Source: Acidobacteriota bacterium (lineage in GTDB: Bacteria > Acidobacteriota > UBA890 > WLXD01). From it: a stretch of 64,000 nucleotides of DNA. A model generated the notes under the pieces. It made no database searches and was not told the DNA's origin. It was given only the letters and a program-made list of their open reading frames with translations. The stretch is taken from the NCBI GenBank assembly GCA_965248695.1, contig CBDFKD010000002.1:5161691-5225690 (forward strand), in the 5' to 3' direction. Shown here piece after piece: positions 3,239 through 62,707 of the stretch; positions within the stretch are counted from its first letter, which is position 1, and every line of letters starts with the position of its first letter. Made by a program: the position numbers and the translations under genes.

Positions 3239-3266
3239 GTGTCGACTCCCTCCGCTCACCGACCCC

Positions 3267-5261
3267 TCAGGTCCGCTCCGCCCACGGATACTGGAACTCC
3301 GGCCTGATCACGTCACCGATGAGGTCCTGAACGGCGCGATGCGCTTGATCCATCGCCGCATGCGTCAGGCTGGTGGCAGCGGCATCCGAGTTGGCCACGG
3401 CAATGCGACCAAATCGCTTCCGGCCGACCACCCAGGGGACCTCGTCGTAGCCCCATTCCGGGTCGTAGAGATCGTTGGCGCCGCCGGCATAGCCATGAGG
3501 CCATCGGTTGACGGTGATCGCGCTGATCTCCTCGGCGGGGTCGAAGCCGCCGCCTGCGAGGGCGCGCCCAAGCTCGTCGCGGATGCGGTACTCGAAGTAA
3601 TCGAACGATGTGGCGAGCAGCTCCTCGCGGCCGGCCCGGAACTGTTCCCTGGCAGAGAGACCAGGCTTGTGCGCGGGCATGCGCTGCAAGTGAAGCGGCT
3701 GAGGATCATCGGGGGTCCGGGCGCAGGTGTAGTCGCCGAGACTCCGATTCATGTCCAGCATCGCCGACCCGTGGTAGCAGCCGGGACCGTAGAAGCTGTT
3801 GATCCCGAGTGCCTCAAACGCCCTCCAGTTGCGCACCACGACGTTCGTGTAGACGAGCGGCTGGCGCACGGCCATCTTCAGCGCCGCCTTCTGCTCGTCG
3901 GGAAAGTCGGGACAGAGGTAGGGGATCATGGAGTTGTAGCAGGCCATGACGCAGGTGGCGCCGCGGGCCCGGTAGGCCTTGCCGTCACGCACGTAGGTGA
4001 CCTCGACCTCGCTGGCAGTGCGGCGCTCGCCGACGTGGCGGACGTTGACCACGGTGCTGTTGAGGCGGACGCGCGCGGCGCTGCCGTCTTCATCGATGGC
4101 GGCGTAGTCGACCGGCGTCGCCACCGAGTCTTCCATCGTCGTTCCCGGGAGAGCCTTCGGAATCAGCCATCTGACGATCAGTCGAGCGATCGCGGCATTG
4201 CCGTCGGGGAAGTGCACTCCCTCGCCGAAGTCGTTACCCTCGCCAAGCCAGCTCTCGGGCGGTCGCTCGAGACGCAGGCCGTCGAAGCCGGGCAGGGAGC
4301 CGGTGCGAAACGCTCCCCAGGCGCTATAGGAGTCGATCCTGGCCGCACCGTTGGAGCCGCCTTCAGCACGGCGCATGAAGAAGGGCATGACACCGGGATC
4401 GGCTTTGACGATCTTCAGAAGATAATCCTGGTAGCTCATCTTCCGCAGACGCGAGACCTTCTCATCGGAGGTCAATCCGGTTAGATAGTCGGTGTTGTCG
4501 TCGTAGGCGCGGGCGATATCGTGTTTGACGACATCAGTTAGCGGCGCATCGGCCAGGAACTGCGTCCATGTGAGCGTGCTACGAACCGAGCCCCAGCCGG
4601 CGGGATCTCCCACCGACAGGTGGTCGGCGCCGAACGTTTCCTGATCAAAGAAGACACCGGCCTGTAGGCCCATCTCGCGGTAAATGCTGCGATCGGCCGC
4701 CGTCGTCCGCAGGAAGCGTTGCTTGTCGATCCCGATGTCCTCCAGCAGCGCCTTTGCCTCGTGCGGGTAGCTGTTAGCGCCGTGGATCATCATCGTGCCG
4801 CCGTAGCCGATGACCAGCTTGCCATCGACCTCGAACTCGTTGCGCTTGGCGTGCCCGCCGAAGTCATCGTGATTGTCGAGAATCAGAATTCGCGCCTCCG
4901 GCAACGCCTTGCGGAAGAAGTACGCCGCCGACAACCCGCTCAGCCCACCACCGACGACGATGAGGTCGTAGCTCTCGCCGGTGTCCTCGGCGTTGTCCCA
5001 GGTCTTCCCATAGCGCATCTCGTGCGCTACTTCGTAGGAGCCCTCGTGACTGCCCCGCATGCCGGTGAGCCGCGGCGGGTAGTACTCGCCCGGCTGCGCT
5101 GCGGAAACGCCTGACCCGTTTGTCGAGCCCTTCGAGCCTGCGGGAGCCCCCGGCCTCCCGGCACCGACCAGGCCGCCGCCAATTGCGACGCTGGCCCCGT
5201 TGAGAAAATCCCGGCGGCTGATGTCACGGTCCATCCCGAGCTCTCGGTCAGTCTTGGTCAC
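3267..5261 (-). CDS. Tat-signal FAD/NAD(P)-binding oxidoreductase, spermidine dehydrogenase (SpdH)-like
   Basis: Twin-arginine motif SRRDFLNG at the N-terminus. Dinucleotide-binding motif VVGGGLSGL. 664 aa. SpdH-like call is from memory of the family. Confidence 0.6.
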   Translation of the reverse strand: MTKTDRELGMDRDISRRDFLNGASVAIGGGLVGAGRPGAPAGSKGSTNGSGVSAAQPGEYYPPRLTGMRGSHEGSYEVAHEMRYGKTWDNAEDTGESYDLIVVGGGLSGLSAAYFFRKALPEARILILDNHDDFGGHAKRNEFEVDGKLVIGYGGTMMIHGANSYPHEAKALLEDIGIDKQRFLRTTAADRSIYREMGLQAGVFFDQETFGADHLSVGDPAGWGSVRSTLTWTQFLADAPLTDVVKHDIARAYDDNTDYLTGLTSDEKVSRLRKMSYQDYLLKIVKADPGVMPFFMRRAEGGSNGAARIDSYSAWGAFRTGSLPGFDGLRLERPPESWLGEGNDFGEGVHFPDGNAAIARLIVRWLIPKALPGTTMEDSVATPVDYAAIDEDGSAARVRLNSTVVNVRHVGERRTASEVEVTYVRDGKAYRARGATCVMACYNSMIPYLCPDFPDEQKAALKMAVRQPLVYTNVVVRNWRAFEALGINSFYGPGCYHGSAMLDMNRSLGDYTCARTPDDPQPLHLQRMPAHKPGLSAREQFRAGREELLATSFDYFEYRIRDELGRALAGGGFDPAEEISAITVNRWPHGYAGGANDLYDPEWGYDEVPWVVGRKRFGRIAVANSDAAATSLTHAAMDQAHRAVQDLIGDVIRPEFQYPWAERT

Positions 5262-6052: not shown

Positions 6053-8971
6053 AGCGTCTCTTGTCGACCGCACCCGCACTGGCCAGTGCGATCATCCTCT
6101 CGCTCACCGCAGGCGCCTGTTCCAGTCCCGACCCTGCTGACCAGACGCCGTCCGGCTCGGCCGTCGATCGGCCGCTGATGCCGGACTGGGACGCGGAGCG
6201 CAGCGAACGACTGGCGTTTTCCGGCGAGCCGTTTCGCACACCGGAGGGCTTTCGCGTCGAGGAAGTTGCCGGCGACGATCTCATCGGATCGGCCGTGAAT
6301 CTCACGTTCGCGTGGGATGGCCGCCCCATCGTGGCGCTCGAGCAACGGGGACTCGTAATTCTCGACGACGGCGACGGAGACGGTCGCTACGATCGAATGA
6401 CACGGCTCTCAGAAGAGATCAGCACCGCTCACGGCCTTTATGTGCTCGGCCCGGACGATCTGCTCGTGCATGCCGACGGGCCGAGTGATGGCCCCGGCCT
6501 CTATCGTGTGAGCGGCTGGCAGGAGGGTCCCTCGGAGAGCACGGTCGAGCTGCTTCGACGGTCGCGCGGAGGGATCCAGGAGCACGGTCCCCACACGATC
6601 ACCCGAGGCCCCGACGGAGCAATTTACCTGCTCTTCGGCAATCATGCCGTTCCCGACATCGAGCCCTCACAGCGCTCACCACTTCGCGCGCTCCAAGAGG
6701 ATCAGCTACTACCCGTCATTCTGGATCCACGCGGTCATGCAAACACCATTCGTGCCCCGGGCGGAACCATCTGGAGAGTCGACCTCGAGGCCGACTCCTG
6801 GGAGCTGTTCGCCGGCGGGCTGCGCAATCCATTCGACATGGCCTTTTCTCCTGCCGGCGGCCTCTTTGTCTACGAGGCGGACATGGAGTGGGATCGCAGT
6901 CTCCCGTGGTACCGACCCACGCGGGTCCTGCACGCGATCCCGGCCGGCGACTACGGGTGGCGAACCGGCTCCGGCAAAGTAGCGTTCGATAACATCGATA
7001 CGCTCCCCAGCGTCGCCGACGTCGGCCGCGGCTCGCCGGTGGGCGTGGCCTTCTACCGCCATCACGCCTACCCCGCGGCGTTCGACGGCGCGTTATTCCT
7101 AGGCGATTGGGCACGTGGCCGCATACGCGTTCTCTTTCCGCAGGAGCACGGCGCTAGCTGGCAGGGGGAGGCCGTCGACTTCGTTCTTCGAGAGCCTCTC
7201 AATGTGACCGACCTCGCGGTGGGTCCTGACGGCCATCTGTATTTCACCATCGGCGGTCGCCAGACCACTGGTGGGCTGTTCCGAGTGGTCTACGACGGAT
7301 CCGACGGTGGCGCCCGAGGGAGCATGCAAGGCGGTCAGGGGAGCGCTGTCGAGAGGGCCTTGCACCAGCCAATGCCGCGATCCGCCTGGGGCCGCGCGGC
7401 CATCGCACAGCAGCGAGCTGCGGCCGGGGCAAGCTGGGGAGAAGGCCTGCGCGACGCTGTCGAGGACACCGATCGATCGAGGTTGGAGAGACAGAGCGCG
7501 CTGGAGATCCTGCAGCTCTATGGCCCGCAACCGTCTGTTGACGATTTGCGGAGATTCCTGGCGGCAGATGATGCCGGCGTACGAGCTACCGTCGTGACCC
7601 ACCTGGGAACCCGAACCGGCCCTAGCGTCTACCGCGCACTGGCAGTCGCACTGGAAGACCCGGATGCGCGCGTTCGGCGCCGGGCGGCAGAGGCGCTGGC
7701 GCGCTCCGGGAGCGCTGGAGAGGGCGCAACCTGCGGACATCGAAGCTATCCTCGCCGGCCTGGTCGGCCTTCTCGACGACGAGGATCGGTTCGTTCGGTA
7801 CGCTGTCCGCGAGACGCTCGCTCGAGTGGACCCGGATCGCTGGATCTCCAAAGTGGATCTCGCCGGGCCACCTTCGAACGCCGCGTTCGAGGCGATGCTT
7901 GCCTTGGTTCTCCGTCCGGGCTTTCCCGATGCCGAGCTCGTCTTCGAACATCTGCGCCTTCACGTCCAATCACAACCCGGCGAAGTACTGCTGGGCTCCT
8001 ATTTACGCGTGCTCGAGCTCGCCCTGGTGCGCTCCAGGGACGCTGGGGTCGACAGCGTGGAGCTCGAGGGACTGGGCCAGTCCATGTTGGATTGGTTCCC
8101 CACGCAACGCCGCGAGCACAACCGCAAGCTCGAGCGCATCCTCGCCTACCTGGCTCCGCCGGGGGCGGTGGACGCGCTGACGGCAAGGTTGGCGCTCGGC
8201 CGGAACCAGGAGGACGAGATCCACACCCTCTACGCCTTGCGAGCGATCGAAGGCGACTGGAGCGAGGCCCAGCGACAGAGCGTCGTCACCTGGTTCGATC
8301 GTGCTCGAGCGTTCACCGGCGCAGCCAGCATGGTGGGCTATATCGACGCCCTCTGGCAGCGGTGGCTAGCGAACCTCTCCGACGCCGAGCGCGTGGCGGC
8401 GGTCGAACGCCGGCAGGTCTGGTTGAGCGCCGAGCGGGACAGGATCGCGGCACTGGTGGCCGACGAAGACCTGCCGAGCGAGGATGAGCGCCGCATGCTG
8501 CGTCAGATGAGCTTCGATGAGCTGGCAGAGTACGTCGAATACGACGTCATGGCCTACGAGCGCTTCGACCCTGCGCACGGCGAACGCGTCTTCCAGCGTG
8601 CCCGTTGTGCCGACTGCCACGTTTTCGGCGATGTCGGTCGCGGTGGCGGACCCGACCTCTCGACCGTCGTCAGTCGCTTCAGGCGGCGCGAGATCCTGGA
8701 GTCGATCGTCTACCCGTCACGGGTGATCTCCGACCAGTACAGTGCCCTTCGCGTCCGCCTCCGTGACGGACGGAGATACGTCGGCATGCACGCCGCCGAG
8801 AGCGAAGAGGACCTCGTCCTGATCACCGCTACGGGCGAACGGGTCGTCCTGGACAAACAGCTGGTCAGCGAGCGCGAGCCGGCCGACGTATCCCTGATGC
8901 CGGAGGGTCTACTCGAGGCCATGAGCTTCGACGACTTGATGAGCCTGATGCGATACCTGGAAGAAGGGTAG
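6049..8971 (+). pseudogene. Frameshifted lipoprotein: beta-propeller-like domain + HEAT repeats + C-terminal cytochrome c (CxxCH)
   Basis: Lipobox LTAGAC after MKRLL. The reading frame switches from frame 1 to frame 2 near 7722-7724 within GAGGGCG. HEAT-like repeats continue across the switch (AAEALARSGSAGE / AQPADIEAILAGLVGLLDDEDRFVRY). Heme motif CADCH near the C-terminus. Confidence 0.65.
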
Positions 8972-9377: not shown

Positions 9378-9419
9378 GCTCCGCCCTCGTCTCAATCCCG
9401 CTCGCCTGATACCGAAAGA

Positions 9420-10901
9420 TCAATCGCCCGTTTGGCCGAACGTCTCCATGTACCACTTCACGAACCGAGCCGGGCTCCCCTCGTGAGTGGCGTAGCGGCC
9501 AGCGCTGTAGCCGCCCGACTGGATACCGAGGTGGTTGTTGCCGGTAAGCCAGATGTCTTCCATCGTCGTGACGTGCCACAGCGCCTTGAGCTCGTCCGGA
9601 TCGTAGTCGCGCCCCTCGACCGCATCCGGATGCACGAGCCAGATGACCTCGTTGTCGGTTCGGTCGTGCGCACGCGGTGTGTATCGGGCGATCATGACGT
9701 GGTCGTCGTAGCCCTGCCAGTAACCGGTTTGCCAGCGGGTCGTGGCGATATCGGTCTCATGGGTCCACGCGATCCTGGTTGGCAGGAGAGGAGCGACGGG
9801 GTTGCCATCCATGGACCCAGTGACGAACCCCGGGTTGAGCTCGCCGTCAACGTCGCCATAGCCGCCCATGCCTGACGCCCGTCGTTCGGCCGCTGCCGGG
9901 ACCCACTCGTCGACCGCCGTCGCGTGGGCGGCCTTCTGTTCGTCGGTGCGCTCTTCGTCGTAGTTGTGCGCTTTCACCAAGGACCCGTGCGCTGGTCCGC
10001 AGTGGTAGCACTCGATGAAGTTCTCCGTCGCGAGCTTCCAGTTCGACTTCAGCGGGTAGTACTCGCGGGCCGCGACCTTGAGCTTGTCGAAGCGGTAAAT
10101 TTCGTTCAGCGCTCGCACACGAGTCACGGTCGATTCGAACTCGGGGGGCGAATCCGATCGAGATAGATTGATGAAGATCTGGCCAGCGGCGACGCGCACA
10201 TGGCAGGGGAGAAGTCCGTTGTCCGCCGGGTCGAAATCGTCCTGCATGCCATAGGCGTAGATCAGACTTCCTTCGGTGTCATACGTCCAGGCGTGGTACG
10301 GACAGCGGAACACCGGCGAGTTGCCGTTCTGGCCAAGCTGCTTCACTGACAAGCGTGGATCCTGCGGCCTCGTATCCGCGTCGTGGCGGCACACCCGTGA
10401 GCCGCGGTGCCGGCAGACATTGTGGAAGGCGCCGACACTTCCGGTCTGGCTACGAACGAGCAGGATGCTCTCCGAGCGCCCGAACTCGAAAACGAAGAAA
10501 TCGCCCGGGCTCGGAATGCGGCTCGCCTGGTCGACGTACTGCCAGAGATTCTCCGCCAGGAAAGCCTCCTCCACCGCATAGTGCTTCGGGTCCAGGTAGT
10601 ACTCGGCCGGAATCGTGGTGCCTTCTTTCCAGCCGTTGATGCCGGCGTTCTCGGGCACGGTTACTGCGAACCGTGGCGCACCCTTGCCACCGTAGCCCGG
10701 TGCTTCCGCCGGCAAGTCTTTGCGGGCAACCGCAACCGGCGAGCCGATCGCATTCGCTGTTGATGGCCCCTGTGGTGGCGCACCGAACAGGGAGTTGGGC
10801 AAAGCGATTGCCGCGGTCCCAGCGGCTACCGAGGACTTGGCGAACGTGCGGCGGCTTACGCGCTGTCCGCCGTTGACGTCGTGACTGTCCTCGTTGCTCA
10901 T
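9420..10901 (-). CDS. Rieske [2Fe-2S] non-heme iron oxygenase alpha subunit with Tat signal
   Basis: SRRTFAKSS twin-arginine motif. Rieske CRHRG...CPYHAW. Mononuclear iron motif ECYHCGPAH. Confidence 0.8.
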   Translation of the reverse strand: MSNEDSHDVNGGQRVSRRTFAKSSVAAGTAAIALPNSLFGAPPQGPSTANAIGSPVAVARKDLPAEAPGYGGKGAPRFAVTVPENAGINGWKEGTTIPAEYYLDPKHYAVEEAFLAENLWQYVDQASRIPSPGDFFVFEFGRSESILLVRSQTGSVGAFHNVCRHRGSRVCRHDADTRPQDPRLSVKQLGQNGNSPVFRCPYHAWTYDTEGSLIYAYGMQDDFDPADNGLLPCHVRVAAGQIFINLSRSDSPPEFESTVTRVRALNEIYRFDKLKVAAREYYPLKSNWKLATENFIECYHCGPAHGSLVKAHNYDEERTDEQKAAHATAVDEWVPAAAERRASGMGGYGDVDGELNPGFVTGSMDGNPVAPLLPTRIAWTHETDIATTRWQTGYWQGYDDHVMIARYTPRAHDRTDNEVIWLVHPDAVEGRDYDPDELKALWHVTTMEDIWLTGNNHLGIQSGGYSAGRYATHEGSPARFVKWYMETFGQTGD

Positions 10902-10965
10902 CTACTTCGCCTCTCGACTATTCGAACGTTGGTCGACTCGCGCTTTCGCGAACTCGCCGAGCTTC

Positions 10966-11011
10966 AACGAACGAAAACCGCGGGAGCCGACGAGCAGATC
11001 GGCTCCCGCGG
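10966..11011 (-). terminator. Rho-independent terminator downstream of the second Rieske gene
   Basis: 13-bp stem, 10978-10990 pairing with 10999-11011. On the minus strand it is followed by TTTTCGTTCGTT. Confidence 0.7.
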
Positions 11012-11036
11012 ATTCACTAGCCAACTGACAGAAAGC

Positions 11037-12557
11037 TCAATCGCCGGCCTGGACAATCTCCTTCATGTACCAGTTGATGAAGCTCGACGGCCCGCCCTCG
11101 CGCGTTCCATACCGGCCGCCGCTGTATGCGCCGGACTCGACGCCGTCGTGGTTGTTGTCGGTGATCCAGATATCCTCCTGGATCGTGACGTGCCACAGCC
11201 CCTTGACGTGTTCCGGGTCGTAGTCACGGCCCTCGACTGCGTCGGGGTGCACCAGCCAGACGATCTCGGCGTCAGTGAACTTCTCGTTGCGCGGCGTGAA
11301 CCGAACCACCATGACGTGATCGTCGTAGAACTGCCAGTATCCGGTCGACTCTCCGGTGGTCGCGATGATCGTACGGTGGTCGCCTTCCTTTCTGCCGGGC
11401 AGCCAAGGTGCAGCCTGCTTGCCGTCGATCGTGCCAGTGACAAACCCCGGGTTGAGCAGACCAGTGAGGTTCTCATACTGGGGCTCGCCGCCCATACCTC
11501 CTCCGCCCATGCCGGCATCTTCATCGTCGCGACGACGACGGCTGTCCTCCGGAACCCAGTCCGCCACGGCAGCAGCCTTTTCGTTCATCTGCTGGTCGCT
11601 GAGGTCGTGGTCCCAATTGTGCGTCGTCACCAGGGGTCGGTGGGCCGGGCCGCAGTGGTAGCACTCCTTGAAGTTCTCGAGCGCCAGCTTCCAGTTGGCG
11701 TTGATTGGGTAGGACTCGCGCGCCGCGACCTTGAGGTCTTTCAAGCTGTACTCGGGGGCCAGCCGCCTGAGGGCGGTAACTGCCGAATCGAAATCCGGCG
11801 GCGTGTCTGACTTCGACAGGTTGACGAAGATCTGGCCTTCGGTAACCCGCGTGTGGCACGGGAGCAAACCGTTGTCGGCCGGGTCGAAGTCGTCCTGCAT
11901 GCCGTAGGCGTAGATAAGGCTGCCCTCGGTGTCGTATGTCCAGGCGTGGTACGGGCAGCGGAACACGGGTGAGCTGCCGCTCTGGCCGAGCTGCTTGACC
12001 GACAGACGCGGATCGCTCGGCTTCGAGTCGGAGTCGTGACGGCACAATCGCGATCCGCGGTGACGACAGACGTTGTAGAACCCGCGCACCTCGTTGTCCT
12101 GGCCTCGAACGATCAGAATGCTCTCGGAGCGACCGAACTCGAAGACGTAGAAGTCGCCCGGGTTCGGAATGCGGCTCTCCTGGTCGGTGTACTGCCAGAA
12201 GTTCTCCCCGACGAATTTCTCGTCGGCTTCGAAATGCTTCGCCTCGATGTAGTACTCGGCGGGAATCGTCAGGCCCTCTTTCCAGCCGTTGACGCTCGCC
12301 TTCTTGGCCACCGGGCCGGTGAGCGGGGCTGCGCCCCGGCCGCCGTAGCCAATGTTCTCGTTGCGCGCTTCGACGCGCGCGGCGCGGCCATAGGTGGCCG
12401 TGGTTGCGGTCGTCGTTGCGGCCGTTGCCGGGGTAGCGCCGAAAAGCGATTTCGGGAGAGCGACGGCGGCGGTGCCCGCGGCAACCGAGGACTTGGCGAA
12501 CGTGCGGCGGCTTACGCGCGGCCCGCCGTTCTTGTCGTGGTCGTCCTTCTTGCTCAT
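11037..12557 (-). CDS. Rieske [2Fe-2S] non-heme iron oxygenase alpha subunit with Tat signal (paralog)
   Basis: Start chosen at the ATG at 12557 (MSKKDDHD), 6 nt after AGGAGA. Carries SRRTFAKSS, CRHRG...CPYHAW and ECYHCGPAH. Confidence 0.8.
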   Translation of the reverse strand: MSKKDDHDKNGGPRVSRRTFAKSSVAAGTAAVALPKSLFGATPATAATTTATTATYGRAARVEARNENIGYGGRGAAPLTGPVAKKASVNGWKEGLTIPAEYYIEAKHFEADEKFVGENFWQYTDQESRIPNPGDFYVFEFGRSESILIVRGQDNEVRGFYNVCRHRGSRLCRHDSDSKPSDPRLSVKQLGQSGSSPVFRCPYHAWTYDTEGSLIYAYGMQDDFDPADNGLLPCHTRVTEGQIFVNLSKSDTPPDFDSAVTALRRLAPEYSLKDLKVAARESYPINANWKLALENFKECYHCGPAHRPLVTTHNWDHDLSDQQMNEKAAAVADWVPEDSRRRRDDEDAGMGGGGMGGEPQYENLTGLLNPGFVTGTIDGKQAAPWLPGRKEGDHRTIIATTGESTGYWQFYDDHVMVVRFTPRNEKFTDAEIVWLVHPDAVEGRDYDPEHVKGLWHVTIQEDIWITDNNHDGVESGAYSGGRYGTREGGPSSFINWYMKEIVQAGD

Positions 12558-12816
12558 TTGCGTTCTCCTGGGCCGCGGCAGCGGTGATCGGTCTGGAAGT
12601 CCAGAAGTTCTCCCTCGGCGCCTGGTGCCCGGAAGCGGCACTCACCCCACTTACGCACGCGCAGAGAACCTACTTTCACTTGTCTAGGTACTACGGTTGC
12701 GGCCGCACTACAACTGGCCGGGCGCCGACCTCCGTATCTTTATCCGGAGCCGGAGCCGCAGCACCTCCTGCTGCATCTATCATCCTTCCATGCCGGTGAA
12801 CGGTCGACCGTACCCC

Positions 12817-14630
12817 TCAGGTACGTTCCGCCCAGGGGTATTGGAACTCGGGACGAATCACGTCGGTCAGCAGCTCCTGCACGGCGCGGTGTGCCTGCTC
12901 GAAGGCCGCCTGGGTTAGCGAGATGGCTGCGGCGTCCGAGTTGGCGATCGTGATGCGCCCGAAACGCTGTCGCCCAACGACCCATGGCGCCTCGTCATAA
13001 CCCCAGTCGGGGTCATACAGGTCATTGGCGCCGCCCGCATAGCCATGCGGCCAGCGGTTGACGGTGATCCCGGCAATGTCGCGCGCCGGGTCGAACCCGC
13101 CGTCGCCGAGCGCCCGGCCGAGCTGGTCGCGGATGCTGCGCTCGAAGGTCTCGAAGCTTGTCGCCTGAAGCTCCTCGCGTCCAGCGCGAAACTGATCTCG
13201 CGCCGACAGTCCGGGCCGAATGGGAAGGCGCTGCAGCCACAACAGGATGGGCTCGTCGGGAGAGGCGGAATGGCGGTAGTCCCCGACGTTGACGCCCCAG
13301 TCCAGATCGATGAACTCGTGGAACCCACCCGGGCTGTGGATGGCACCGACACCCAGGTTGGCAAACGCCGTCCAGTTCTCGATCGCAACCTGCGTGTAGA
13401 CGTACGGCTTCCGTACCGCCAGCTTCAGGGCCTCCTTCTGTGCCTCCGGAACCTCCGGACACAGGTACGGAATCATTGCGTTGTAGCAGGCCATTACGCA
13501 GCTGCCGCCGCCGACGCGGACCGCCCGCCCGTTCTGCACGTAGGTCACCGCGACCTCGTTGGCTGCGCGTCGCTCGCCCGCGTGGCGCGCACTCACCACC
13601 GTGCTGTTGAGACGGATGCGTACCGGATTGCCGGCCTTGTCCAGCTGCGAGTAACGGATCGGCGTGGTTACCGAATCCTCCATCGTCGTCCCCGGCAGCG
13701 CCGCCGGAATGAGCCAACGGACCATTAGCCGCGCGATGCTGGCATTGCCGTCCGGGAAGTGAATTCCCTGGAATGGGTTGTCGCCCGGGGCAGCGTTGCG
13801 CGCCGGACGTTCGAGACCCTCATCTTTCGCAGTCGGGCGATCTTCTCCTCGTCGCTCAACTCCGGTAAATAGTCGCGGTTCTCGGTATAGAGCTGCAGGA
13901 TGCCCGCCTTGGCGGCTTCCGATAGGGGTGTTTGGGCAAGGAAGTCGGTCCAGCGACGGCGCGCCTGGGCACCGCGTGCCCGCCTTGGCTCGCCGACGAC
14001 CAGGCGGTCTGTGCCGAAGGTCTCGCGGTCGAAGAACACGCCGCCGCGCAGACCCATCTCACTGTAGAGGTCGTTCGCCGAGCCGCCAGGGAAGCGCTCC
14101 GCGCTCACGCCGATATCCTCGAGGAGATCCTTGGCCTCCGCCGGATAGTACCCGGTGATGAATTGGGTGCCGCCGTAGCCGATCAACTGCCGGTCGCCGA
14201 CGGTGAACTCGACGCGTTTGGCATGCCCACCGAAGTCGTCATGATTGTCGAGAACGAGCACCCGGGCTTCGGGGAGCGCCTTGCGAAAGTAGTAGGCGGC
14301 GGCAAGGCCACTGAGCCCGGCGCCGACCACCACCAGGTCGTACTGCTCGCCCGATTCCTCTGCCTCGTTCCAGGTCTTGCCGTAGCGCATCTCGTGCGCC
14401 ACCTCGAAGGAACCGTCGTGGCTGCCGCGCATGCCGGTGAGCCTCGGCGGGTAGTAGCTTTCCGGGTCCTGTGTGGGCGTCGCATGGCTGCCTGGGGGCT
14501 GGCCGGTAGGCACGGTGGCGGAGGCTCCAATCGCTGCTGCCGAGCCTCCAACGGCGACGCTGCTGCCGTTAAGGAAATCCCTTCGAGTGATTCGGCGGTC
14601 CATACCAAGCTGCTTGTCAGTCCTTTTCAC
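12817..14630 (-). pseudogene. SpdH-like Tat oxidoreductase paralog with internal out-of-frame deletion
   Basis: Two ORFs (13725-14630 and 12817-13725) are colinear with the 664-aa paralog. About 55 residues are missing after RLRKM, and the frame changes at about 13800. Confidence 0.75.
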
Positions 14631-35990: not shown

Positions 35991-36277
35991 GAGCGTGACG
36001 TAGCACGCCATTAGGCTACGGCGGCTAACAGGGTCTCTTTAGATCCAGGGGGCCGCGCCCCGGTGGGGACGAATCGGAAGTAACCGAGCGTGACGCGGTG
36101 CGGTACGAAGCCGCGGCGGCTGGTGGATCTTGAAGGATCCAAGGGCCGTGCCCCGGTGGGGACGAATTCGGTAGTACTAAGACATATTCTGAGAGCGTGA
36201 CGTGGCACGCCATTAGGTCACGGCGGCTAACAGGGTCTCTTCAGATCCAGGGGGCCGCGCCCCGGTGGGGACGAATC
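35991..36277 (+). repeat. Three tandem ~85-nt hairpin-rich modules
   Basis: Units at 35991-36075, 36086-36169 and 36193-36277. Each reads GAGCGTGA, hairpin, GCGGCT, hairpin, GGGCCGYGCCCCGGTGGGGACGAAT. Confidence 0.7.
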
Positions 36278-52455: not shown

Positions 52456-52973
52456 TGGCCGGCGCGATCCAGGTCACAGCCGCGCTGTTGGCGGTGTTCT
52501 ATGGCGAGCTCGCCGGCGCGGGGTTGCCACTCGATCCGTTCGAGTCGCGGTTTCGGGCGCAGATCCAAGTGGAGTCGGCTTGGCGGCCCGAGGCGCGCTC
52601 CAAGTACGCCGCCGGACTCGCACAGTTCACCCCTGCCACGTGGAGCGACATCGCGCCGTACACCGAGCCCTCGTGCGCTGGCGCCCCCGAGACTGACCCG
52701 GCCTGCTCGATCCGCTCGCAGATCGTGTACATGCGCCGACTATTGATCCGATACAGCGACTCGGCGACCCCGGAGGACCAGTGGGCGTTTGCCTCGGCTG
52801 CCTACAACGGCGGTCCTGGATGGATCAGCCGCGAGAAGGCGCGGTGTGCGGCGGCTCCAGACTGCGAGCCGCGCCGCTGGTGGGGCCACGTCGAGCTGCA
52901 CTGTTTACGCGCCGCGTGGGCGTGCCGTGAAAACCGCGCCTACCCGCGCAAAATCGTCGCGCGGCTGCCGTAG
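52455..52973 (+). CDS. Lytic transglycosylase (SLT domain) endolysin
   Basis: QVESAWRPEARSKYAAGLAQFTPATW carries the catalytic ES and GLAQF signature. Confidence 0.7.
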   Translation: MAGAIQVTAALLAVFYGELAGAGLPLDPFESRFRAQIQVESAWRPEARSKYAAGLAQFTPATWSDIAPYTEPSCAGAPETDPACSIRSQIVYMRRLLIRYSDSATPEDQWAFASAAYNGGPGWISREKARCAAAPDCEPRRWWGHVELHCLRAAWACRENRAYPRKIVARLP

Positions 52974-52980
52974 CGAAAGC

Positions 52981-53670
52981 ATGAGACTCCGCACTGCCAT
53001 TCTCCTCATCGCCCTCGCCACCCTCGTGGGCTTCGGTGCCGGATGGTGGCACTTCGCACCCTCGCTGCTGTCGCCTGAGGGGCTGGTCGGGCTGGCCTCG
53101 GGGCTGCTGGATCAGCAGCGCCGCGAGTCGCTGGCCCAGTACGAGGCGATGCAGGCGACCCACGCGGCCGAGATCGCCGCCTATGAAGCCGACCTCTCCG
53201 CTACAGAACGAGCGCTCGGCCAGCTGGGTCTCCGACTCGCCGAGCGCGATGCAGAGGCGGTCGAGGCGGAGCAGGCCCTTGGCCGCACTCTCCAGCTGGC
53301 GGCACAGCGCGAGGCGCAGCTGCGCGATGAGATCTTGGCGGCCGTCCCCGGGCTCGAGGTGCCCCTGGAGGAGCTACAGGCACAGCACCGCGGCGTGGTG
53401 AAGGGGTTCGAGCTACGGGTCAAGGCGCTGCAGCAGAGCGTCGAGACTCGTGACCAGCTGATCGTGAACCTGCGACAGCAGCTGGGTACCACTCGCCAGC
53501 TATACGAGACAACGCAAGCGCGGCTCGACCTGGCGGAGGCGCGGCGCAAGAGCCTCGAAGGACGGCGCGTGCGGCTAGCTCCAGCGCTGCTGATCGGCGG
53601 GATACGCGACCTGAGCGGCACAGACGGCTGGAGGGCTGGCGTCGCCGTCGGGATTGCGATCACCTGGTAG
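52981..53670 (+). CDS. Spanin-like protein (N-terminal TM + coiled coil)
   Basis: TM helix ILLIALATLVGFGAGWW followed by a long heptad-rich region. Last gene of the lysis block. Confidence 0.45.
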   Translation: MRLRTAILLIALATLVGFGAGWWHFAPSLLSPEGLVGLASGLLDQQRRESLAQYEAMQATHAAEIAAYEADLSATERALGQLGLRLAERDAEAVEAEQALGRTLQLAAQREAQLRDEILAAVPGLEVPLEELQAQHRGVVKGFELRVKALQQSVETRDQLIVNLRQQLGTTRQLYETTQARLDLAEARRKSLEGRRVRLAPALLIGGIRDLSGTDGWRAGVAVGIAITW

Positions 53671-53722
53671 GAACCTCGAAGCTGCGCCTGACCAATCCGG
53701 TGCCGAGACGGTGAGGATGCAG

Positions 53723-55471: not shown

Positions 55472-55914
55472 GGAGAAGATGGGCGTTGACGGTACCTTAT
55501 CACGATACTGTGATGCTGCGAGTTGACGGCGCTTTCGGCGACTCACCTGGCGGGCAGCGATTATCACGGGCCATCCGGCGGGTATCGGGCGCACCCCCCA
55601 GTTCCTCCCCCACCGTAGAAAACACCGTGCGGCCCTTCGAAAAGGCCGCCCGGCGCTTGCGGGCACGTCGAAGCCCCTCAGCTTCGCGCGGCGGGAAAGA
55701 TAGCACGCGAGAAGATCGCCGGCACTTCAGCTGCCTGCCAGCAGATGCGGCGCCAGGCATGGCACAGGTGCTCGCGGCCAAAAAGCGGTCTTGATGAGCA
55801 ACCAAAAGAGCGGCCGGAGGAGGTATCGTAGCGAACGTACCGTTCCGACCGCTCTTTCGTTCTTCGTGTACCGGGTGGTGGTGGGCTGGTGCCGGCTCCG
55901 GGCTTCCTATCTAC

Positions 55915-55947
55915 GGGTCACGGGTTCGATCCCCGCCACCTCCACAC
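55915..55947 (+). other. tRNA/tmRNA 3'-end-like fragment (possible former att site)
   Basis: ACGGGTTCGATCCCCGCCACCTCCACA gives a T-arm plus a 3' acceptor strand. No convincing 5' half lies within normal tRNA distance. Confidence 0.45.
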
Positions 55948-56422: not shown

Positions 56423-56548
56423 CGCATCAAGAGCCTCAGCGGCCGGCGGATCAGGTTCGGGCGGCCCGCCGTGCTCATCGGTGCCGTGCGGAGCCCTGGG
56501 CGTGGATGGGAGCCGGGTGTCGCCGTCGGGATCGCGGTTACCTGGTAG
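56423..56548 (+). pseudogene. 3' remnant of a second spanin-like gene
   Basis: Translates to RIKSLSGRRIRFGRPAVLIGAVRSPGRGWEPGVAVGIAVTW*. This is colinear with the C-terminus of 52981-53670 (RRKSLEGRRVRLAPALLIGGIRDLSGTDGWRAGVAVGIAITW*). Confidence 0.65.
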
Positions 56549-56561
56549 GGAGGCGTGTGAT

Positions 56562-57032: not shown

Positions 57033-57119
57033 GCCATCGTGGCGAAATCGGCAAACGCACCCGGTTTGCGACCGGGCGGCTGTCTAGGCCTTGTGGGTTC
57101 GAGTCCCACCGATGGCACC
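57033..57119 (+). tRNA. Class II (long variable arm) tRNA, Leu-type body, anticodon UGC
   Basis: Acceptor 57033-57039 pairs with 57110-57116. 3-bp D stem with an 11-nt loop. Anticodon stem 57060-57064 pairs with 57072-57076, loop TTTGCGA. 16-nt variable arm. T arm GTGGG TTCGAGT CCCAC. Discriminator A followed by CC. Confidence 0.7.
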
Positions 57120-57539: not shown

Positions 57540-57727
57540 GGTTTTGAGATAACGAACCAAAGGTGGTCGTCGTGAATGCCGGTCGTGTCGTGAAAGCTGT
57601 CGCCGGCCTCAACAATCACCCCGCTGCACCAGCTGATCGGATTATGTCGACCTTCTTGCTGAACGCGTTTGTTAGGCGAGTAAATCTGCGCATGTTCATG
57701 CGCATGGTCAGGTTCTGCCGCTCGATT
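57540..57727 (-). pseudogene. IS1-family transposase 3' fragment
   Basis: Encodes ERQNLTMRMNMRRFTRLTNAFSKK, compared with ERQNLTMRMSMRRFTRLTNGFSKS in the intact copy at 59059-59895. Downstream frames are broken, and the fragment is truncated at 57727. Confidence 0.6.
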
Positions 57728-57887
57728 CGCCGGAGAGCCGATGAGCTAGAAGAACTTCTCATCGAAAGCGTCGATGACCCATCCGACCTCGACCACGAGC
57801 GCGTCAAGGCTCTCGAATACAGCCAAGCCGGTATCAGGCCCCATACCTTCGCCGAAGACTACGCGCGCGACCACAAGCGTATCCATT
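57726..57887. repeat. 162-bp perfect direct repeat, copy A
   Basis: Identical base for base to 62546-62707. Confidence 0.9.
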
Positions 57888-58098
57888 CGGCAACTAATGC
57901 AGATCCGAATCCGAAAATGAGAGCAAACCGCAACAGCGATCGCGTCGGCTGCGAGAATGCCCCCGGCAAACGGGTGCTGTCCTAATTTGAACTGCTCGAA
58001 GTTTATGAGTGATTTACAACGATTTATATCATGCAGGATGGACTCTCCCTTAACTTACTTTATACTTTCACTTAAATCGTATTGACGGGAGAGAGACT

Positions 58099-58701
58099 AT
58101 GGTTCTAGGCTCTGACAGGTTGTGGGAAACGGCGTTTAGGGGACTCATGGACCCGAAATTGCTTGTCGAAAGGTACCAGTACTTATCCAGGAAGCGACGC
58201 GAGATCGAGGGGAAGATGGCGGCCCTGGCGGAAATGCAGCAAGTCTTAGGGGTGGAATTGGACGACGTAAACGACCAGCGCGCCATGCTTTGGCTTCAGC
58301 TCGATCGACAGGCTCTGCTTGATCGTGACGATATCCGCGAGTATCTCGGTGACGCCACGAAGCCGCCTGGCATCAAGCGCGTGCGTGCCGAACAGGTAGA
58401 CCGAGACTTGATGAGATACCTGGCCAATCAAGATGGTCGGGAATGGCGCGTCCGGGACATCCTCACGCACAAGAACGCCATGCGGCTCGGCCATATGTCT
58501 GATAGCGGTGTTCGGGCGGCGATTAACCGCGCCATCGAGCGCGGCGAACTGGAGAAGACTGGCGGATGGGGGATCGTTCGCGTATCGGACCGAGGTAAGG
58601 AGTCTTACGGTCTTGATGCCGAGGCTGACTTGGAAGAACAAGACATGGACCTGGCCGAGAAAGAGGCCATGGAAAAGGAGAAGGCTAGGCCACCGTTCTG
58701 A
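58099..58701 (+). CDS. Hypothetical protein with a winged-helix-like C-terminal region
   Basis: ORF preceded by an AT-rich region with TTGACG. No family recognised. Confidence 0.4.
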   Translation: MVLGSDRLWETAFRGLMDPKLLVERYQYLSRKRREIEGKMAALAEMQQVLGVELDDVNDQRAMLWLQLDRQALLDRDDIREYLGDATKPPGIKRVRAEQVDRDLMRYLANQDGREWRVRDILTHKNAMRLGHMSDSGVRAAINRAIERGELEKTGGWGIVRVSDRGKESYGLDAEADLEEQDMDLAEKEAMEKEKARPPF

Positions 58702-58706
58702 ACAAA

Positions 58707-58738
58707 GAGCCCGCCGCTGCGGTAACAGCGACGGGCTC
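58707..58738 (+). terminator. Hairpin after 58099-58701
   Basis: 13-bp stem with one mismatch and a 6-nt loop. No U-tract. Confidence 0.35.
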
Positions 58739-58752
58739 CGACAACTTGTGAT

Positions 58753-58827
58753 GGCCTCGTGGACAACAGACGGTCAAGTCGCGGGACTGGAAATCCCGAG
58801 ATCCCGGTTCGACACCGGGCGGGGCCT
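58753..58827 (+). tRNA. Class I tRNA, Cys-like body, anticodon GGA
   Basis: Acceptor GGCCTCG pairs with CGGGGCC (one G-U pair). Anticodon stem CGGGA/TCCCG with loop CTGGAAA. 4-nt variable loop. T arm CCCGG TTCGACA CCGGG. Discriminator T. CCA not encoded. Confidence 0.65.
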
Positions 58828-58999
58828 CACCTTTCTCCCCTGACAGCAAGGAGGGTCAGATGATAGCGCGAGCACCACCGTCAGCGCATCCCTGAACGCC
58901 GAAGGGGCCGGGGTGCGTCTCACGATGCTCCCCGGCCACCTATAAGTCGCCCGGCCCGCTGCACGAACAGCGAACCGGGCTAGATCCAAGACGCGGGCA

Positions 59000-59960
59000 T
59001 AGGCCGCATCGGACCCTCACAGCCATTGTGGTCCTGCCCGCCATCCGGAGCAAGACCGATGGCGAACGTACTGGCCCCCGAGAAGAAGCGCATGATCATC
59101 GCCGCCCTGGTGGAGGGCAACAGCATCCGCAGCATCGAGCGCATGACCGGCTGTCACCGAGACACGATCTGCCGGCTGCTCGTGCGGGTAGGTGAAGGCT
59201 GCGAAGCCATGATGCGCGAGCGGTTCACCGGTTTGCGCCTTGACGATCTCCAGGTCGATGAAATCTGGACCTACGTCCAGAAGAAGCAGGCCACGGTGAT
59301 CAGGTCCGGCAAGCGCGTGAATCCCAAGCATGGTGATCAATGGGTTTTCGTCGCGCTCGATGCCGAAACGAAGTTGGTGCCGCATTGGATCGTCGGCAAG
59401 CGCGACGGCTACAACTCCTACCAGATGATCTCGGAGCTGGCCCGTAGGATCGACGGGCCGTTCCAACTGACCACGGACGCTTTCGCTGGCTACAAGGCCG
59501 CTCTCGGAGTCGTGGCGGCTCGTGGTATCGACTACGCACAGCAGACCAAGAGCTATACGGCCACGAATCCATCCTTCGGACGTTACTCACCACCAAGGGT
59601 CAGCCACTGCACAACTCAGGTTGTGGCCGGAGATCCAGATCCGGAGGCGATCTCCACGAGCTACGTCGAGCGTCAGAACCTGACCATGCGGATGAGTATG
59701 CGACGGTTCACCCGGCTGACGAACGGCTTCTCAAAGTCGCTGCGCAACCTGGAAGCCGCTGTGTCGCTGCACTTCGCCTGGTACAACTTCGTGCGGATTC
59801 ACGACAGCCTGCGGAGCACGCCGGCCGTTGTGGCCGAAGTAGTTAGTACCGAGTTGGCGATGGACGACCTGCTGGCCTTCGAGGCGGGCTACTAATGCTC
59901 GGTGATTTCCACAGGATATCCACAACGGGTGGCGCTCCTGTTGATGATGACCCCCAACAT
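59000..59960 (+). mobile_element. IS1-family insertion sequence (ends approximate)
   Basis: Single transposase ORF. Short similar inverted blocks CCATTGTGG at about 59023 and CCACAACGG at about 59921. Exact termini not resolved. Confidence 0.4.
59059..59895 (+). CDS. IS1-family transposase
   Basis: N-terminal HTH (GNSIRSIERMTGCHRDTICRLL). DDE region. C-terminal YVERQNLTMRMSMRRFTRLTNGFSK motif. Confidence 0.75.
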   Translation: MANVLAPEKKRMIIAALVEGNSIRSIERMTGCHRDTICRLLVRVGEGCEAMMRERFTGLRLDDLQVDEIWTYVQKKQATVIRSGKRVNPKHGDQWVFVALDAETKLVPHWIVGKRDGYNSYQMISELARRIDGPFQLTTDAFAGYKAALGVVAARGIDYAQQTKSYTATNPSFGRYSPPRVSHCTTQVVAGDPDPEAISTSYVERQNLTMRMSMRRFTRLTNGFSKSLRNLEAAVSLHFAWYNFVRIHDSLRSTPAVVAEVVSTELAMDDLLAFEAGY

Positions 59961-60724: not shown

Positions 60725-60809
60725 AAACGCTCCTCGAAACGGCCAGCAAAATCCGTACCAAACTGACTTTCAGTGACTTTCATAATGGGACACTACCCAT
60801 ACGAGATCA

Positions 60810-61424
60810 CTACCCTGGCAGGCGGCCGGGGCTGGCGCGAACGCCGAGCACGGTGTTGGTTTCCGGGTCGATGTCGCATTGGTAGGTGTGGTTCTGCCAA
60901 GCACCGAGGCCATTTTGGAACTGGATCTTGTCGCCGATCAGGGTGAGGGTTCCGGCAGACTGATCCTTCCAGCGGAAGCGGCTGAACTTTGGCTCAAGGA
61001 AGCCGTCTGTCCACTGGTGGCTGTATTGCGCTAGCCGCTCGATGCGGTCTTCGCAGTACACACCTGTAGAGATGTGCCTGTTGCCCCAGCAGTTGAGGTC
61101 TTGCCGACAGGCCGTGTCGCTGACCGAAGGTGCGGAAGACGAGCCTGACCCTGGGTCATCCGTGCTGAGGACGTAGACGCAAAAAGCCAGTCCTAGCAGA
61201 AGCATCACCACACATCCCATGGCGGTCTTGCTGGCCTGCTTTTTCTCTGCAGCCGCCGTCTCGGCGGTGAGGCTGGGTGCCGAGTCCTCGGGCTCGGGGG
61301 CTGCAGTGGCTGGGGGCGCGGCCGCGGCCGGATCCTCCGTTCCAACCGGGCAACCGCACTGCGGACAGGCTGCCGCCTGGTCGGAAATCTGAGCCTTGCA
61401 TTCAGGGCATTCGATCAGAGCCAA
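60810..61424 (-). CDS. Zinc-ribbon / single-TM protein with an extracytoplasmic Cys-containing domain
   Basis: N-terminal CPECK...CPQCG, Ala/Pro linker, TM helix MGCVVMLLLGLAFCVYVL. Confidence 0.5.
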   Translation of the reverse strand: MALIECPECKAQISDQAAACPQCGCPVGTEDPAAAAPPATAAPEPEDSAPSLTAETAAAEKKQASKTAMGCVVMLLLGLAFCVYVLSTDDPGSGSSSAPSVSDTACRQDLNCWGNRHISTGVYCEDRIERLAQYSHQWTDGFLEPKFSRFRWKDQSAGTLTLIGDKIQFQNGLGAWQNHTYQCDIDPETNTVLGVRASPGRLPG

Positions 61425-62545: not shown

Positions 62546-62707
62546 TTCGCCGGAGAGCCGATGAGCTAGAAGAACTTCTCATCGAAAGCGTCGATGACCC
62601 ATCCGACCTCGACCACGAGCGCGTCAAGGCTCTCGAATACAGCCAAGCCGGTATCAGGCCCCATACCTTCGCCGAAGACTACGCGCGCGACCACAAGCGT
62701 ATCCATT
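62546..62707. repeat. 162-bp perfect direct repeat, copy B
   Basis: Identical to 57726-57887. Covers the 3' end of the minus-strand gene 62566-63327. Confidence 0.9.

Follow-up and report, generated by a model that had tools for sequence, protein, structure and literature searches.

A Cys-type class I tRNA gene with a GGA anticodon in a small conserved cassette of an Acidobacteriota bacterium

A 64,000-nucleotide (nt) stretch of the genome of an Acidobacteriota bacterium (assembly GCA_965248695.1, contig CBDFKD010000002.1, positions 5,161,691 to 5,225,690 of the forward strand; hereafter the window) contains at positions 58753–58827 a class I tRNA gene that combines a cysteine (Cys)-type body with the serine (Ser) anticodon GGA. 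The gene is real, and selection has kept it intact; it belongs to a rare, small cassette, a unit of about 0.9 kb, in a rearranged mobile region beside a prophage. The interpretation we tentatively favor is that of a selected, cassette-borne tRNA-Cys derivative with a remodeled anticodon, which would act as a conditional, low-level Ser-to-Cys missense decoder; its charging and decoding are steps that we infer. Natural tRNAs that mispair amino acid and codon are few (allo-tRNAs, tRNAProX, selC* and the nematode nev-tRNAs), and they bear on the genetic code's flexibility and on mistranslation as a tool. To these the locus adds an ordinary-looking 7/5 class I tRNA with Cys marks and a Ser anticodon, maintained by covariation.

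A complete cloverleaf exposing GGA

Positions 58753–58827 of the plus strand form a 75-nt class I cloverleaf with a 7/5 acceptor/T branch and a U73 discriminator, which parses as GGCCUCG UG GACA ACAGACGGUCA AGUC G CGGGA CUGGAAA UCCCG AGAU CCCGG UUCGACA CCGGG CGGGGCC U. The variable loop is AGAU (4 nt), the T arm is CCCGG-UUCGACA-CCGGG, the D stem consists of three Watson–Crick pairs and an A13·A22 mismatch, and the anticodon GGA lies in a normal 7-nt loop, CUGGAAA. All 20 Watson–Crick pairs are intact, and the gene is full length with all four stems whole. CCA is not encoded; the bases 3′ of U73 are CAC. A sequence-only reading of the window had described this gene by its length of 75 nt, U73, 4-nt variable loop, T arm, 3-bp D stem and GGA anticodon, all of which are indeed present here.

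Three treatments give the same anticodon loop. ARAGORN calls a tRNA-Ser(gga) at 58753–58828; Rfam's model for tRNA reaches 50.2 bits (E = 1.4e-8, against a gathering score of 29) in the register of our manual parse; and the unconstrained minimum free energy (MFE) fold is a cloverleaf that exposes CUGGAAA. Since the MFE fold yields the same loop, folding does not reassign the anticodon, an outcome that the sequence-only reading had named as fatal to its claim. The combined anticodon-arm and T-arm pattern had no chance match in 100 shuffles of the window, and no repeat of the tRNA was found elsewhere in the 64 kb.

Covariation with a syntenic ortholog

The tRNA gene is preceded by an open reading frame (ORF) at 58099–58701, whose product (P0001) has two relatives, P0003 and P0004. 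In six independent assemblies (L092, L093 and L095–L098), P0003 and its close variants are encoded at a single chromosomal locus that has peptidase genes on one side and an FTCD gene on the other. In all six, the P0003-type ORF is followed by a 32-nt hairpin identical to that at 58707–58738 of the window, and then by a homologous tRNA that starts exactly 52 nt past the ORF stop, the same distance as in the window. Co-occurrence of the upstream ORF with such tRNAs in other genomes, which had been proposed as a check on a linked function, is thus what we find: the only relatives of P0001 are followed by a homologous tRNA at this same 52-nt spacing.

In L092, the tRNA lies at 8592–8666 (Rfam 50.8 bits) and parses as GGCACCG UA GACA AACUGGCAA AGUC G CCCGG CUAGCAAA CCGGG AGAU CCGGG UCCGAAU CCCGG CGGUGCC U, followed by CAC. 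Positions 58693–58962 of the window align with L092 8532–8824 at 74% identity; within this block, conservation is almost complete in the hairpins and lower in the tRNA. Base pairs were counted on a manual structural alignment checked against the sequences, MAFFT having gapped the acceptor stem. The two tRNAs differ by five compensatory double substitutions, at 4:69, 28:42, 29:41, 31:39 and 51:63, and by one U·G to C:G change, with none of the 20 Watson–Crick pairs disrupted; A13·A22, G26, AGAU and U73 are unchanged. One of the six assemblies has C40U, which still pairs as G·U. Five compensatory changes and no disruptive one mean that the cloverleaf is under selection, which rules out simple decay.

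The anticodon loop of the ortholog is different: it has 8 nt, CUAGCAAA, read by ARAGORN as "agca", and is the same in all six assemblies, so that an assembly error can be discounted. Either loop, CUGGAAA or CUAGCAAA, can be reached from the canonical tRNA-Cys loop CUGCAAA by a single mutation, and both retain C32, U33, G34 and A36-A37-A38, while the stems have taken more than 10 substitutions between the window and L092. Because the loops stand one step from the Cys loop while the stems changed this often, the loop seems to have been altered and not to be drifting freely. The comparison of two lineages, which make up the anticodon-unbiased sample of the family, therefore points to an anticodon loop altered under constraint.

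Identity elements and body type

The determinants listed for bacterial cysteinyl-tRNA synthetase (CysRS) are U73, G2–C71, C3–G70, tertiary interactions, and G34, C35 and A36 (Giege & Eriani 2023, Table 1, PMC9976931). The window tRNA has U73 (the U at 58827), G2–C71, C3–G70, G34 and A36; its anticodon, G34-G35-A36, keeps two of the three positions, and C35 alone is missing. U73 is also found in L092 and in three further tRNAs with GGA described below (L040, L021 and L001). The acceptor pairs G2–C71 and C3–G70 (GGC.../...GCC) are shared by the window, L092 and L040, and they are absent from L021 (A2–U71, G3–C70) and L001 (G3–C70). Seryl-tRNA synthetase (SerRS) uses a long variable arm and G73 (PMC9976931). 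With a 4-nt variable loop and U73, the window tRNA lacks both and is therefore not a normal bacterial tRNA-Ser, which upholds the exclusion made in the sequence-only reading.

The core of the window tRNA (3-bp D stem, purine13·A22, 4-nt variable loop) has the Cys layout, a layout that is not Cys-specific, as the phage tRNA-Gln L072 has it too. BLAST searches of annotated phage genomes gave weak matches, about 206 of 215 on mycobacteriophage tRNA-Cys genes, where they cover the variable loop, T arm and 3′ acceptor strand; the best full-length phage match is a tRNA-Gln(UUG) with G73 at 72% identity. A body pattern free of the anticodon retrieved only ordinary phage tRNA-Glu genes from viral contigs. 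Judged by these comparisons, a wider Cys/Gln/Glu body type has the GAC/GUC D stem and the 13·22 mismatch as well as the 4-nt variable loop, so that it is the acceptor end, along with G34 and A36, that carries the Cys assignment. The original description of the body as Cys-like is upheld by U73, G2–C71, C3–G70, G34 and A36; it is to be qualified in that the 4-nt variable loop, like the 13·22 mismatch, occurs in tRNA-Gln and tRNA-Glu as well. BLAST of the tRNA against E. coli genomes gave no match, and against plasmids short chance matches only.

Organization of the cassette

The window and L092 share the order AT-rich promoter region, ORF for a protein with coiled coil and winged helix, hairpin, tRNA, Shine–Dalgarno (SD) sequence with mini-ORF, and two hairpins. 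The features of the window copy and its neighborhood, which includes an insertion sequence (IS), are as follows.

57033–57119, plus strand: partner tRNA, class II, anticodon UGC (Ala), with long variable arm (ARAGORN; Rfam, 58.2 bits)
58039–58066, plus strand: sigma-70-like promoter candidate TGGACT-16-TATACT in the AT-rich stretch 5′ of the ORF (consensus match only)
58099–58701, plus strand: ORF for P0001, 200 aa, N-terminal coiled coil and C-terminal winged helix
58707–58738, plus strand: GC-rich 32-nt hairpin GAGCCCGCCGCUGCGGUAACAGCGACGGGCUC between ORF stop and tRNA, no U-tract on the plus strand
58753–58827, plus strand: class I tRNA(GGA) with Cys-type body (ARAGORN, Rfam, MFE, covariation)
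58850–58895, plus strand: SD sequence GGAGG (58850–58854) and 11-codon mini-ORF MIARAPPSAHP, ATG at 58860 to TGA at 58895
58904–58937, plus strand: hairpin GGGGCCGGGG...CCCCGGCC, about 92% identical to L092, in the consensus fold (inverted repeat I7)
58949–58980, plus strand: second hairpin of the 58707–58738 type, GCCCGGCCCGCUGC-ACGAAC-AGCGAACCGGGC (sequence, L092 alignment, fold)
59026–59895, plus strand: IS1-family-like transposase ORF (Pfam DDE_Tnp_IS1 and HTH_29), inside the window's cassette copy
60748–60799, plus strand: 52-nt boundary- or operator-like element with tandem TGACTTTCA boxes, 92% identical to L092 7714–7765 and 85% to L092 9940–9994

At the place of the promoter candidate, TTGACG-17-TATGAT can be read from the sequence in L092 and CATAGT in L094, the P0004 locus. 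The hairpin at 58707–58738 is identical in L092 over its 32 nt although the upstream proteins are only about 31–35% identical, and L094 has a structurally equivalent hairpin with compensatory changes 3′ of P0004. A minus-strand terminator-like prediction falls on this hairpin; its match to the Rfam family "sar" was discarded as a chance match. Because the hairpins at 58707–58738 and 58949–58980 are similar, the tRNA and the mini-ORF are bracketed by them. A 301-nt segment of the window folds with z = −5.1. The 278-nt conserved block had no BLAST match among plasmids and phages, and a search of viral contigs for the two conserved hairpin motifs returned nothing.

Downstream of the tRNA, GGAGG at 58850–58854 can pair with CUCC at 58835–58838. 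L092 has at the same place (about 8694–8748) GGAGG, a spacing of 7 nt, ATG and a 14-codon ORF, MSYTRILPRGPPAA. Both mini-ORFs carry a Pro-Pro motif (APPSA and GPPAA) and end just 5′ of the conserved hairpin; the predicted SD-led mini-ORF could be a leader peptide or attenuator. In L092, the 10-mer GCUAGCAAAC of the anticodon loop (8625–8634) recurs exactly at 8681–8690, which is the loop of the hairpin that sequesters the SD sequence of the mini-ORF. This 10-mer contains the self-complementary GCUAGC, and a loop–loop contact or a shared binding protein is conceivable in L092; the window copy has no equivalent identity.

Copies of the 52-nt element, which also has a CATAAT/TATAAT motif, flank the L092 cassette on both sides, and the window holds a single copy; the left copy appears to have been lost in a rearrangement. 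The right-hand copy in L092 is followed by TTGACA-18-TACAAT and a predicted short transcript with a strong U-tract terminator, which may be a small RNA.

P0001 was an orphan in a word-indexed search of 5.8e9 clusters. Exhaustive HMMER searching against 1.84e9 representatives gave three matches and yielded the two relatives P0003 (E = 3e-7, 35% identity) and P0004, and a profile search added no further members, leaving three clusters in 5.8e9. The AlphaFold2 model of P0001 is poor (predicted local distance difference test score 60), with a C-terminal half of the order helix-helix-helix-strand-strand; Foldseek with this low-confidence model returned weak, generic winged-helix matches of the PadR/MarR type. 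The family profile found nothing significant among Protein Data Bank sequences, and P0001 has no match in Pfam, PHROGs, PADLOC or NCBIfam. P0003 matches the PADLOC AbiEi model (E = 3e-5) and, weakly, Pfam AbiEi_4, with no match in NCBIfam. Given these models, P0001 is probably a DNA-binding regulator of the cassette. No aminoacyl-tRNA synthetase (aaRS), nucleotidyltransferase, reverse transcriptase or integrase was recognized among the cassette and island ORFs searched, and the genes called in L092 likewise include no recognizable aaRS-like gene. L092 also has a convergent membrane ORF of 183 aa, which matches PADLOC "1TM-TIR" (E = 2e-6).

Further tRNAs with GGA

A GGA-specific anticodon-arm and T-arm pattern, scanned over 185,579 species-representative genomes, matched once, in a Nitrospinota metagenome-assembled genome (L001), and a slightly looser version gave 70 metagenome loci. 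Most of the 70 are 3′-half tRNA-Phe-like remnants of attachment (att) sites or full-length Phe-like tRNAs carrying GGA. L001, L021 and L040 are full-length Cys-type tRNAs that have U73 and a variable loop of 4 nt. Two of these, L001 and L021, encode CCA and resemble ordinary tRNA-Cys plus the single change C35G; they lie beside HATPase_c-domain and DUF1508 genes (L001) and beside an XRE-type helix-turn-helix (HTH) gene typical of mobile elements (L021). The third, L040, has the GAC/GUC D stem, G26, U73 and lack of encoded CCA of the window tRNA. Only 3 nt past it follows a Leu-like class II tRNA of 84 nt whose anticodon, UGG, is that of Pro and which has A18 and G55 instead of G18 and U55, and the pair (1137–1295) adjoins an ImmA/IrrE peptidase gene and a Phage_ABA_S gene.

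These recurrences show that such genes exist repeatedly and do not make GGA a conserved state. The L040 pair lends support to the earlier view that the two anticodon-mismatched tRNAs of the window are more than a coincidence, for here, too, a GGA tRNA is accompanied by a mismatched Leu-like tRNA, in this case 3 nt away and with a Pro anticodon; independent mobile contexts thus pair a Cys-type tRNA with a Leu-type tRNA bearing an Ala or Pro anticodon. No proteins are common to the window and the 70 metagenome loci. In viral contigs, the GGA pattern found nothing, and a looser one brought up nothing but irregular or partial tRNA-like pieces within phage tRNA arrays, all of them unrelated.

Many of the loci L006–L070 are among dozens of Phe-like 3′ halves with variable loop GUGUC, A73, GGA in place of GAA and no 5′ half, which have the look of att-site copies whose anticodon has mutated. 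Six contigs (L029, L031, L034, L038, L053 and L054) carry one of these sequences in identical form. At L059 (11852–12019), a class II tRNA-Ser(CGA) is followed after 7 nt by a tRNA(GGA) of class I size that has G73 and whose acceptor stem is Ser-like; this may be a tRNA-Ser that lost its long arm.

Proposed decoding and its alternatives

If the gene is a missense decoder as we tentatively propose, the tRNA would be co-transcribed with the upstream gene, as no plus-strand terminator lies between the ORF and the tRNA. Ribonuclease (RNase) P and 3′ processing would release it, and the CCA-adding enzyme would supply CCA. CysRS would charge it at reduced efficiency, because U73, G2–C71, C3–G70, G34 and A36 are kept and C35 alone is missing. 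The charged tRNA would pair with UCC and UCU on the ribosome, inserting Cys for Ser, and the winged-helix protein would keep it in check. We infer all of these steps from the sequence: that the gene is transcribed, that the tRNA is processed, is charged by CysRS and decodes, and that the upstream protein exerts control. As a precedent for an anticodon variant, tRNA-Cys(CUA) is reportedly cysteinylated and used as an amber suppressor (Normanly 1986, listed among the references of PMC5389517). A natural precedent is tRNA-Cys with a UCA anticodon (selC*), which is cysteinylated and used (PMC5389517). Allo-tRNAs with mismatched anticodons are a further one: their amino acid is inserted in E. coli, they can be toxic, and they lie near TA (toxin–antitoxin) genes (PMC5389517).

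Several observations weigh against this interpretation. C35 is a major determinant for CysRS (PMC9976931, PMC5389517), so that charging could be very poor. UCC and UCU together make up 12–21 codons per 1000 in host, prophage and island genes, with neither avoidance nor enrichment, so that efficient decoding of Ser codons as Cys would do broad harm. L092, the one relative found by a route free of anticodon bias, does not keep the anticodon, a variation that the sequence-only reading had not anticipated and that weakens any interpretation tied to GGA as such; no particular codon can therefore be claimed as a conserved target of the family, and L040, L021 and L001, having been found with a GGA-specific pattern, are biased by design. 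The window tRNA has an unusually long D loop of 11 nt and a nonstandard 15:48 pair (C15/U48), the T loop of the ortholog has C55, which is atypical for a translating tRNA, and the DNA around the window copy is rearranged debris that includes a whole IS copy, a further IS fragment and an exact duplicate of 162 nt.

A serious competitor, to which we give a somewhat lower probability, is that the gene specifies a non-decoding tRNA-shaped element in which the fold matters and not the anticodon. Its role could lie in RNase P/Z processing or in stabilization of the cassette transcript; it could serve a tRNA-binding protein, for example a synthetase, a modification enzyme or a toxin that targets tRNA, as decoy or ligand; or it could be a regulator acting together with the downstream leader hairpin. 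The fold is kept by covariation and the anticodon loop differs (7 nt with GGA versus the 8-nt CUAGCAAA); the flanking hairpins are more conserved than the tRNA; and in L092 the same GCUAGCAAAC occupies the anticodon loop and the SD-hairpin loop. Also in keeping with such a role are C55 in the L092 tRNA and G55 in the L040 partner, and some irregular tRNAs near TA systems are charged yet unused in translation (Mukai et al., PMC5389517). A pure scaffold, however, would have no need of G34 and A36, which are retained, and the loops keep C32, U33, A37 and A38 as in decoding tRNAs. The acceptor-end Cys determinants are, moreover, conserved in the window, L092 and L040, and no protein with a known tRNA-binding domain was recognized in the cassette. 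If the tRNA never decodes, it would be a new case of the tRNA fold being recruited to another job.

We consider it unlikely that the gene is a spare cassette tRNA-Cys(GCA) recently disabled by an anticodon mutation (C35G here, a 1-nt insertion in L092) and thus an early pseudogene. Such an origin would agree with both loops being exactly one mutation from CUGCAAA, with the position of the window copy amid IS debris and duplicated fragments, with the great rarity of GGA versions (1 species representative among 185,579 matches the pattern), and with the resemblance of L001 and L021 to ordinary CCA-encoding tRNA-Cys plus this change. Random decay, however, would hardly place two independent first changes both in the anticodon and leave about 40 stem positions untouched. 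All six assemblies have the 8-nt loop, and the sole other change among them keeps pairing. A GGA tRNA has, moreover, another mismatched tRNA for company both in the window and in L040, which are unrelated contexts.

An improbable extension of the decoding interpretation would make the cassette a TA or abortive infection (Abi)-type module, with the mis-decoding tRNA as effector and the AbiEi-like protein silencing it. The only recognizable protein of the tiny conserved cassette resembles an Abi/TA regulator, and the window tRNA occupies the gene position held by the AbiEii toxin in AbiE systems. In such a module, the window tRNA would put Cys at UCC and UCU, its ortholog would be a quadruplet-reading tRNA-Cys, and the Leu-like tRNA with Ala or Pro anticodon would be a second "toxic tRNA" in some versions. 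Were the tRNA truly the effector of a defense or addiction module, it would represent a new class of toxin.

Charging by another synthetase, be it glycyl-tRNA synthetase, threonyl-tRNA synthetase, an unusual SerRS (hence true Ser decoding) or an unrecognized dedicated enzyme elsewhere in the genome, has in our estimate quite a small probability. U73 is common to bacterial tRNA-Gly, and G34-G35 to tRNA-Thr(GGU) (PMC9976931); dedicated enzymes have precedents in ProRSx/tRNAProX (PMC11415595) and CysRS*/selC* (PMC5389517). Of the Gly set, however, which comprises U73, C2–G71, G3–C70, C35 and C36 (PMC9976931), the window tRNA has U73, along with G1–C72, and otherwise carries G2–C71, C3–G70, G35 and A36. 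The Thr determinants C2–G71 and U36 (PMC9976931) are likewise absent, as are the SerRS determinants already mentioned, and no aaRS-like gene is found in the cassette, the island ORFs searched or the called genes of L092.

That the gene is an att-site remnant or a duplicate of a host tRNA left by an integrating element is very unlikely: the mobile DNA beside a prophage and the many pattern matches in metagenomes that are truly 3′-half Phe-like att remnants with GGA would suit this origin, but the gene is full length with four intact stems and no repeat in the 64-kb window, and its distance to the ORF and hairpin is fixed in another genome that lacks the surrounding prophage. The suggestion of decayed integration-target tRNAs in the sequence-only reading accordingly fails for 58753–58827, given in addition the five compensatory changes and no disruption relative to the ortholog.

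Comparison with known systems

The canonical bacterial tRNA-Cys(GCA), for which the E. coli layout was used, shares with the window tRNA U73, G2–C71, C3–G70, purine13·A22, the 4-nt variable loop, G34 and A36. The window tRNA departs from it in G35, the 11-nt D loop, an A:U pair at 11:24, C15/U48 and the lack of an encoded CCA.

Some tRNAs with 8-nt anticodon loops, such as Salmonella sufD, are frameshift suppressors or quadruplet decoders. The L092-family ortholog resembles them in its CU-NNNN-AA loop (AGCA) on a Cys-type body, whereas the loop of the window tRNA has the normal 7 nt. As a possible +1 target for the 8-nt-loop tRNA, the overlap of two minus-strand ORFs of the L092 cassette was inspected and contains no UGCU; this overlap, which has a +1 relation, was rejected as a frameshift site and looks like ordinary translational coupling.

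AbiE is a type IV TA system in which the winged-HTH antitoxin AbiEi is followed by the nucleotidyltransferase AbiEii. The cassette is similar in that P0003 matches AbiEi winged-helix models and a regulator comes first and a second component after it. It differs in having no AbiEii/DUF1814 gene, and P0001 itself has no AbiEi match; the likeness is limited to the winged HTH, the N-terminal half of the cassette protein being a coiled coil.

Allo-tRNAs have an 8/4 or 9/3 branch, a long variable arm, a long selenocysteine (Sec)-like D stem with tetraloop, and mostly Ser identity (Mukai et al., NAR 2017, PMC5389517). In soil bacteria, polycistrons of allo-tRNAs and irregular tRNAs lie near TA genes and transposable elements, and some allo-tRNAs are active missense or nonsense suppressors in E. 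coli, others being apparently unused in translation (PMC5389517). The window tRNA resembles them in its mismatch of body and anticodon, in an anticodon that varies within one structural family (GGA and AGCA in orthologs), and in a neighborhood of the mobile or TA type, with XRE-type HTH genes, an IS, a prophage and an AbiEi-like gene nearby. It is distinct in its 7/5 branch, 4-nt variable loop, 3-bp D stem with 11-nt loop and Cys-type determinants.

The tRNAProX/ProRSx pair of Streptomyces and Kitasatospora combines Pro identity, A33/A34, A15–A48 and a dedicated synthetase gene (PMC11415595). tRNAProX, which causes missense decoding, is, like the window tRNA, a natural class I bacterial tRNA that joins one identity to other anticodons; the window tRNA has U33, G34 and U73 instead, no synthetase was recognized among the ORFs searched, and the linked gene encodes a winged-helix protein. 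selC* tRNAs are Sec-like with an 8/4 branch and long variable arm, read UGA, and occur with SelB* and in some cases with a CysRS* devoid of the anticodon-binding domain (PMC5389517). tRNA-Cys(UCA) of this kind shares U73 and a non-Cys anticodon with the window tRNA and is cysteinylated and decodes a non-Cys codon; the window tRNA, in contrast, lacks the Sec-like fold, the long arm and the SelB*/CysRS* features.

Full-text literature searches brought up no description of GGA on the body of a Cys-type class I tRNA. Anticodon-mismatched tRNAs are already known; what is new here is a Cys-type 7/5 class I body with GGA, which lacks the defining features of allo-tRNA, tRNAProX and selC*.

Partner tRNA and genomic surroundings

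Bacterial leucyl-tRNA synthetase does not read the anticodon. The partner tRNA at 57033–57119 is Leu-like, with the D arm GCGA-AAUCGGCAA-ACGC, A73 and G37, and its best long phage BLAST matches are annotated as tRNA-Leu; since the synthetase ignores the anticodon, this tRNA, if expressed, would insert Leu where Ala is encoded. Its acceptor helix is longer by three base pairs (GGU/ACC), and the tRNA lies outside the cassette conserved in L092. Its location 1.63 kb upstream, with the ORF 58099–58701 between the two mismatched tRNAs, is as first described. A third tRNA-like sequence, at 55874–55945, is called tRNA-Arg(cct) by ARAGORN; in Rfam, the tRNA model ranks below a weak 18.1-bit tmRNA-like match to the acceptor and T arm. 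With an acceptor U·U mismatch and a poor fold, it is a degenerate tRNA-like sequence at the end of the prophage structural block. No att-type repeats of the three tRNA-like genes were found in the window.

From about 27000 to 54000, the window holds a prophage structural and packaging region with two N6_N4 DNA methylases, a DUF4055 portal protein, a P22-type coat protein, a tape-measure protein of 1618 aa and a baseplate-like protein. The portal protein matches phages of many hosts at only about 35%, which gives no hint of a taxon. No prophage integrase or att repeat was found within the window. From about 54 kb onward, the G+C content drops from about 0.64 to 0.58–0.61, and this stretch contains XRE-type HTH genes and the IS1-like transposase. 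A 162-nt exact direct repeat (57726–57887 and 62546–62707) lies inside two ORFs, and adjoining it is an inverted fragment of an IS1-like transposase (57666–57725 versus 59666–59725, 80% identical). The repeats and the IS fragment are signs of recent IS-mediated rearrangement around the cassette; the IS copy, the IS fragment, the 162-nt duplicate and the prophage together place the tRNA in rearranged mobile DNA. Recoding of the element's own genes was considered and rejected, the Zn-ribbon CxxC motifs of the ORF at 60810–61424 using normal Cys codons.

Other duplications are present in the window. A 46-nt segment at 53626–53671, which includes the stop of the ORF 52789–53670, recurs 2.9 kb downstream at 56504–56549 with 80% identity, which suggests a remnant of a second related element. 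Just 5′ of the coat-protein gene, an 85-nt direct repeat (35991–36075 and 36193–36277, 95% identity) is accompanied by a third partial copy. At 9411–12641 are tandem paralogous genes for Rieske ring-hydroxylating oxygenase alpha subunits with 72–81% DNA identity, and a second duplicated block (3262–5084 and 12812–14456), its copies about 9.5 kb apart, lies beside a Mutator-family transposase.

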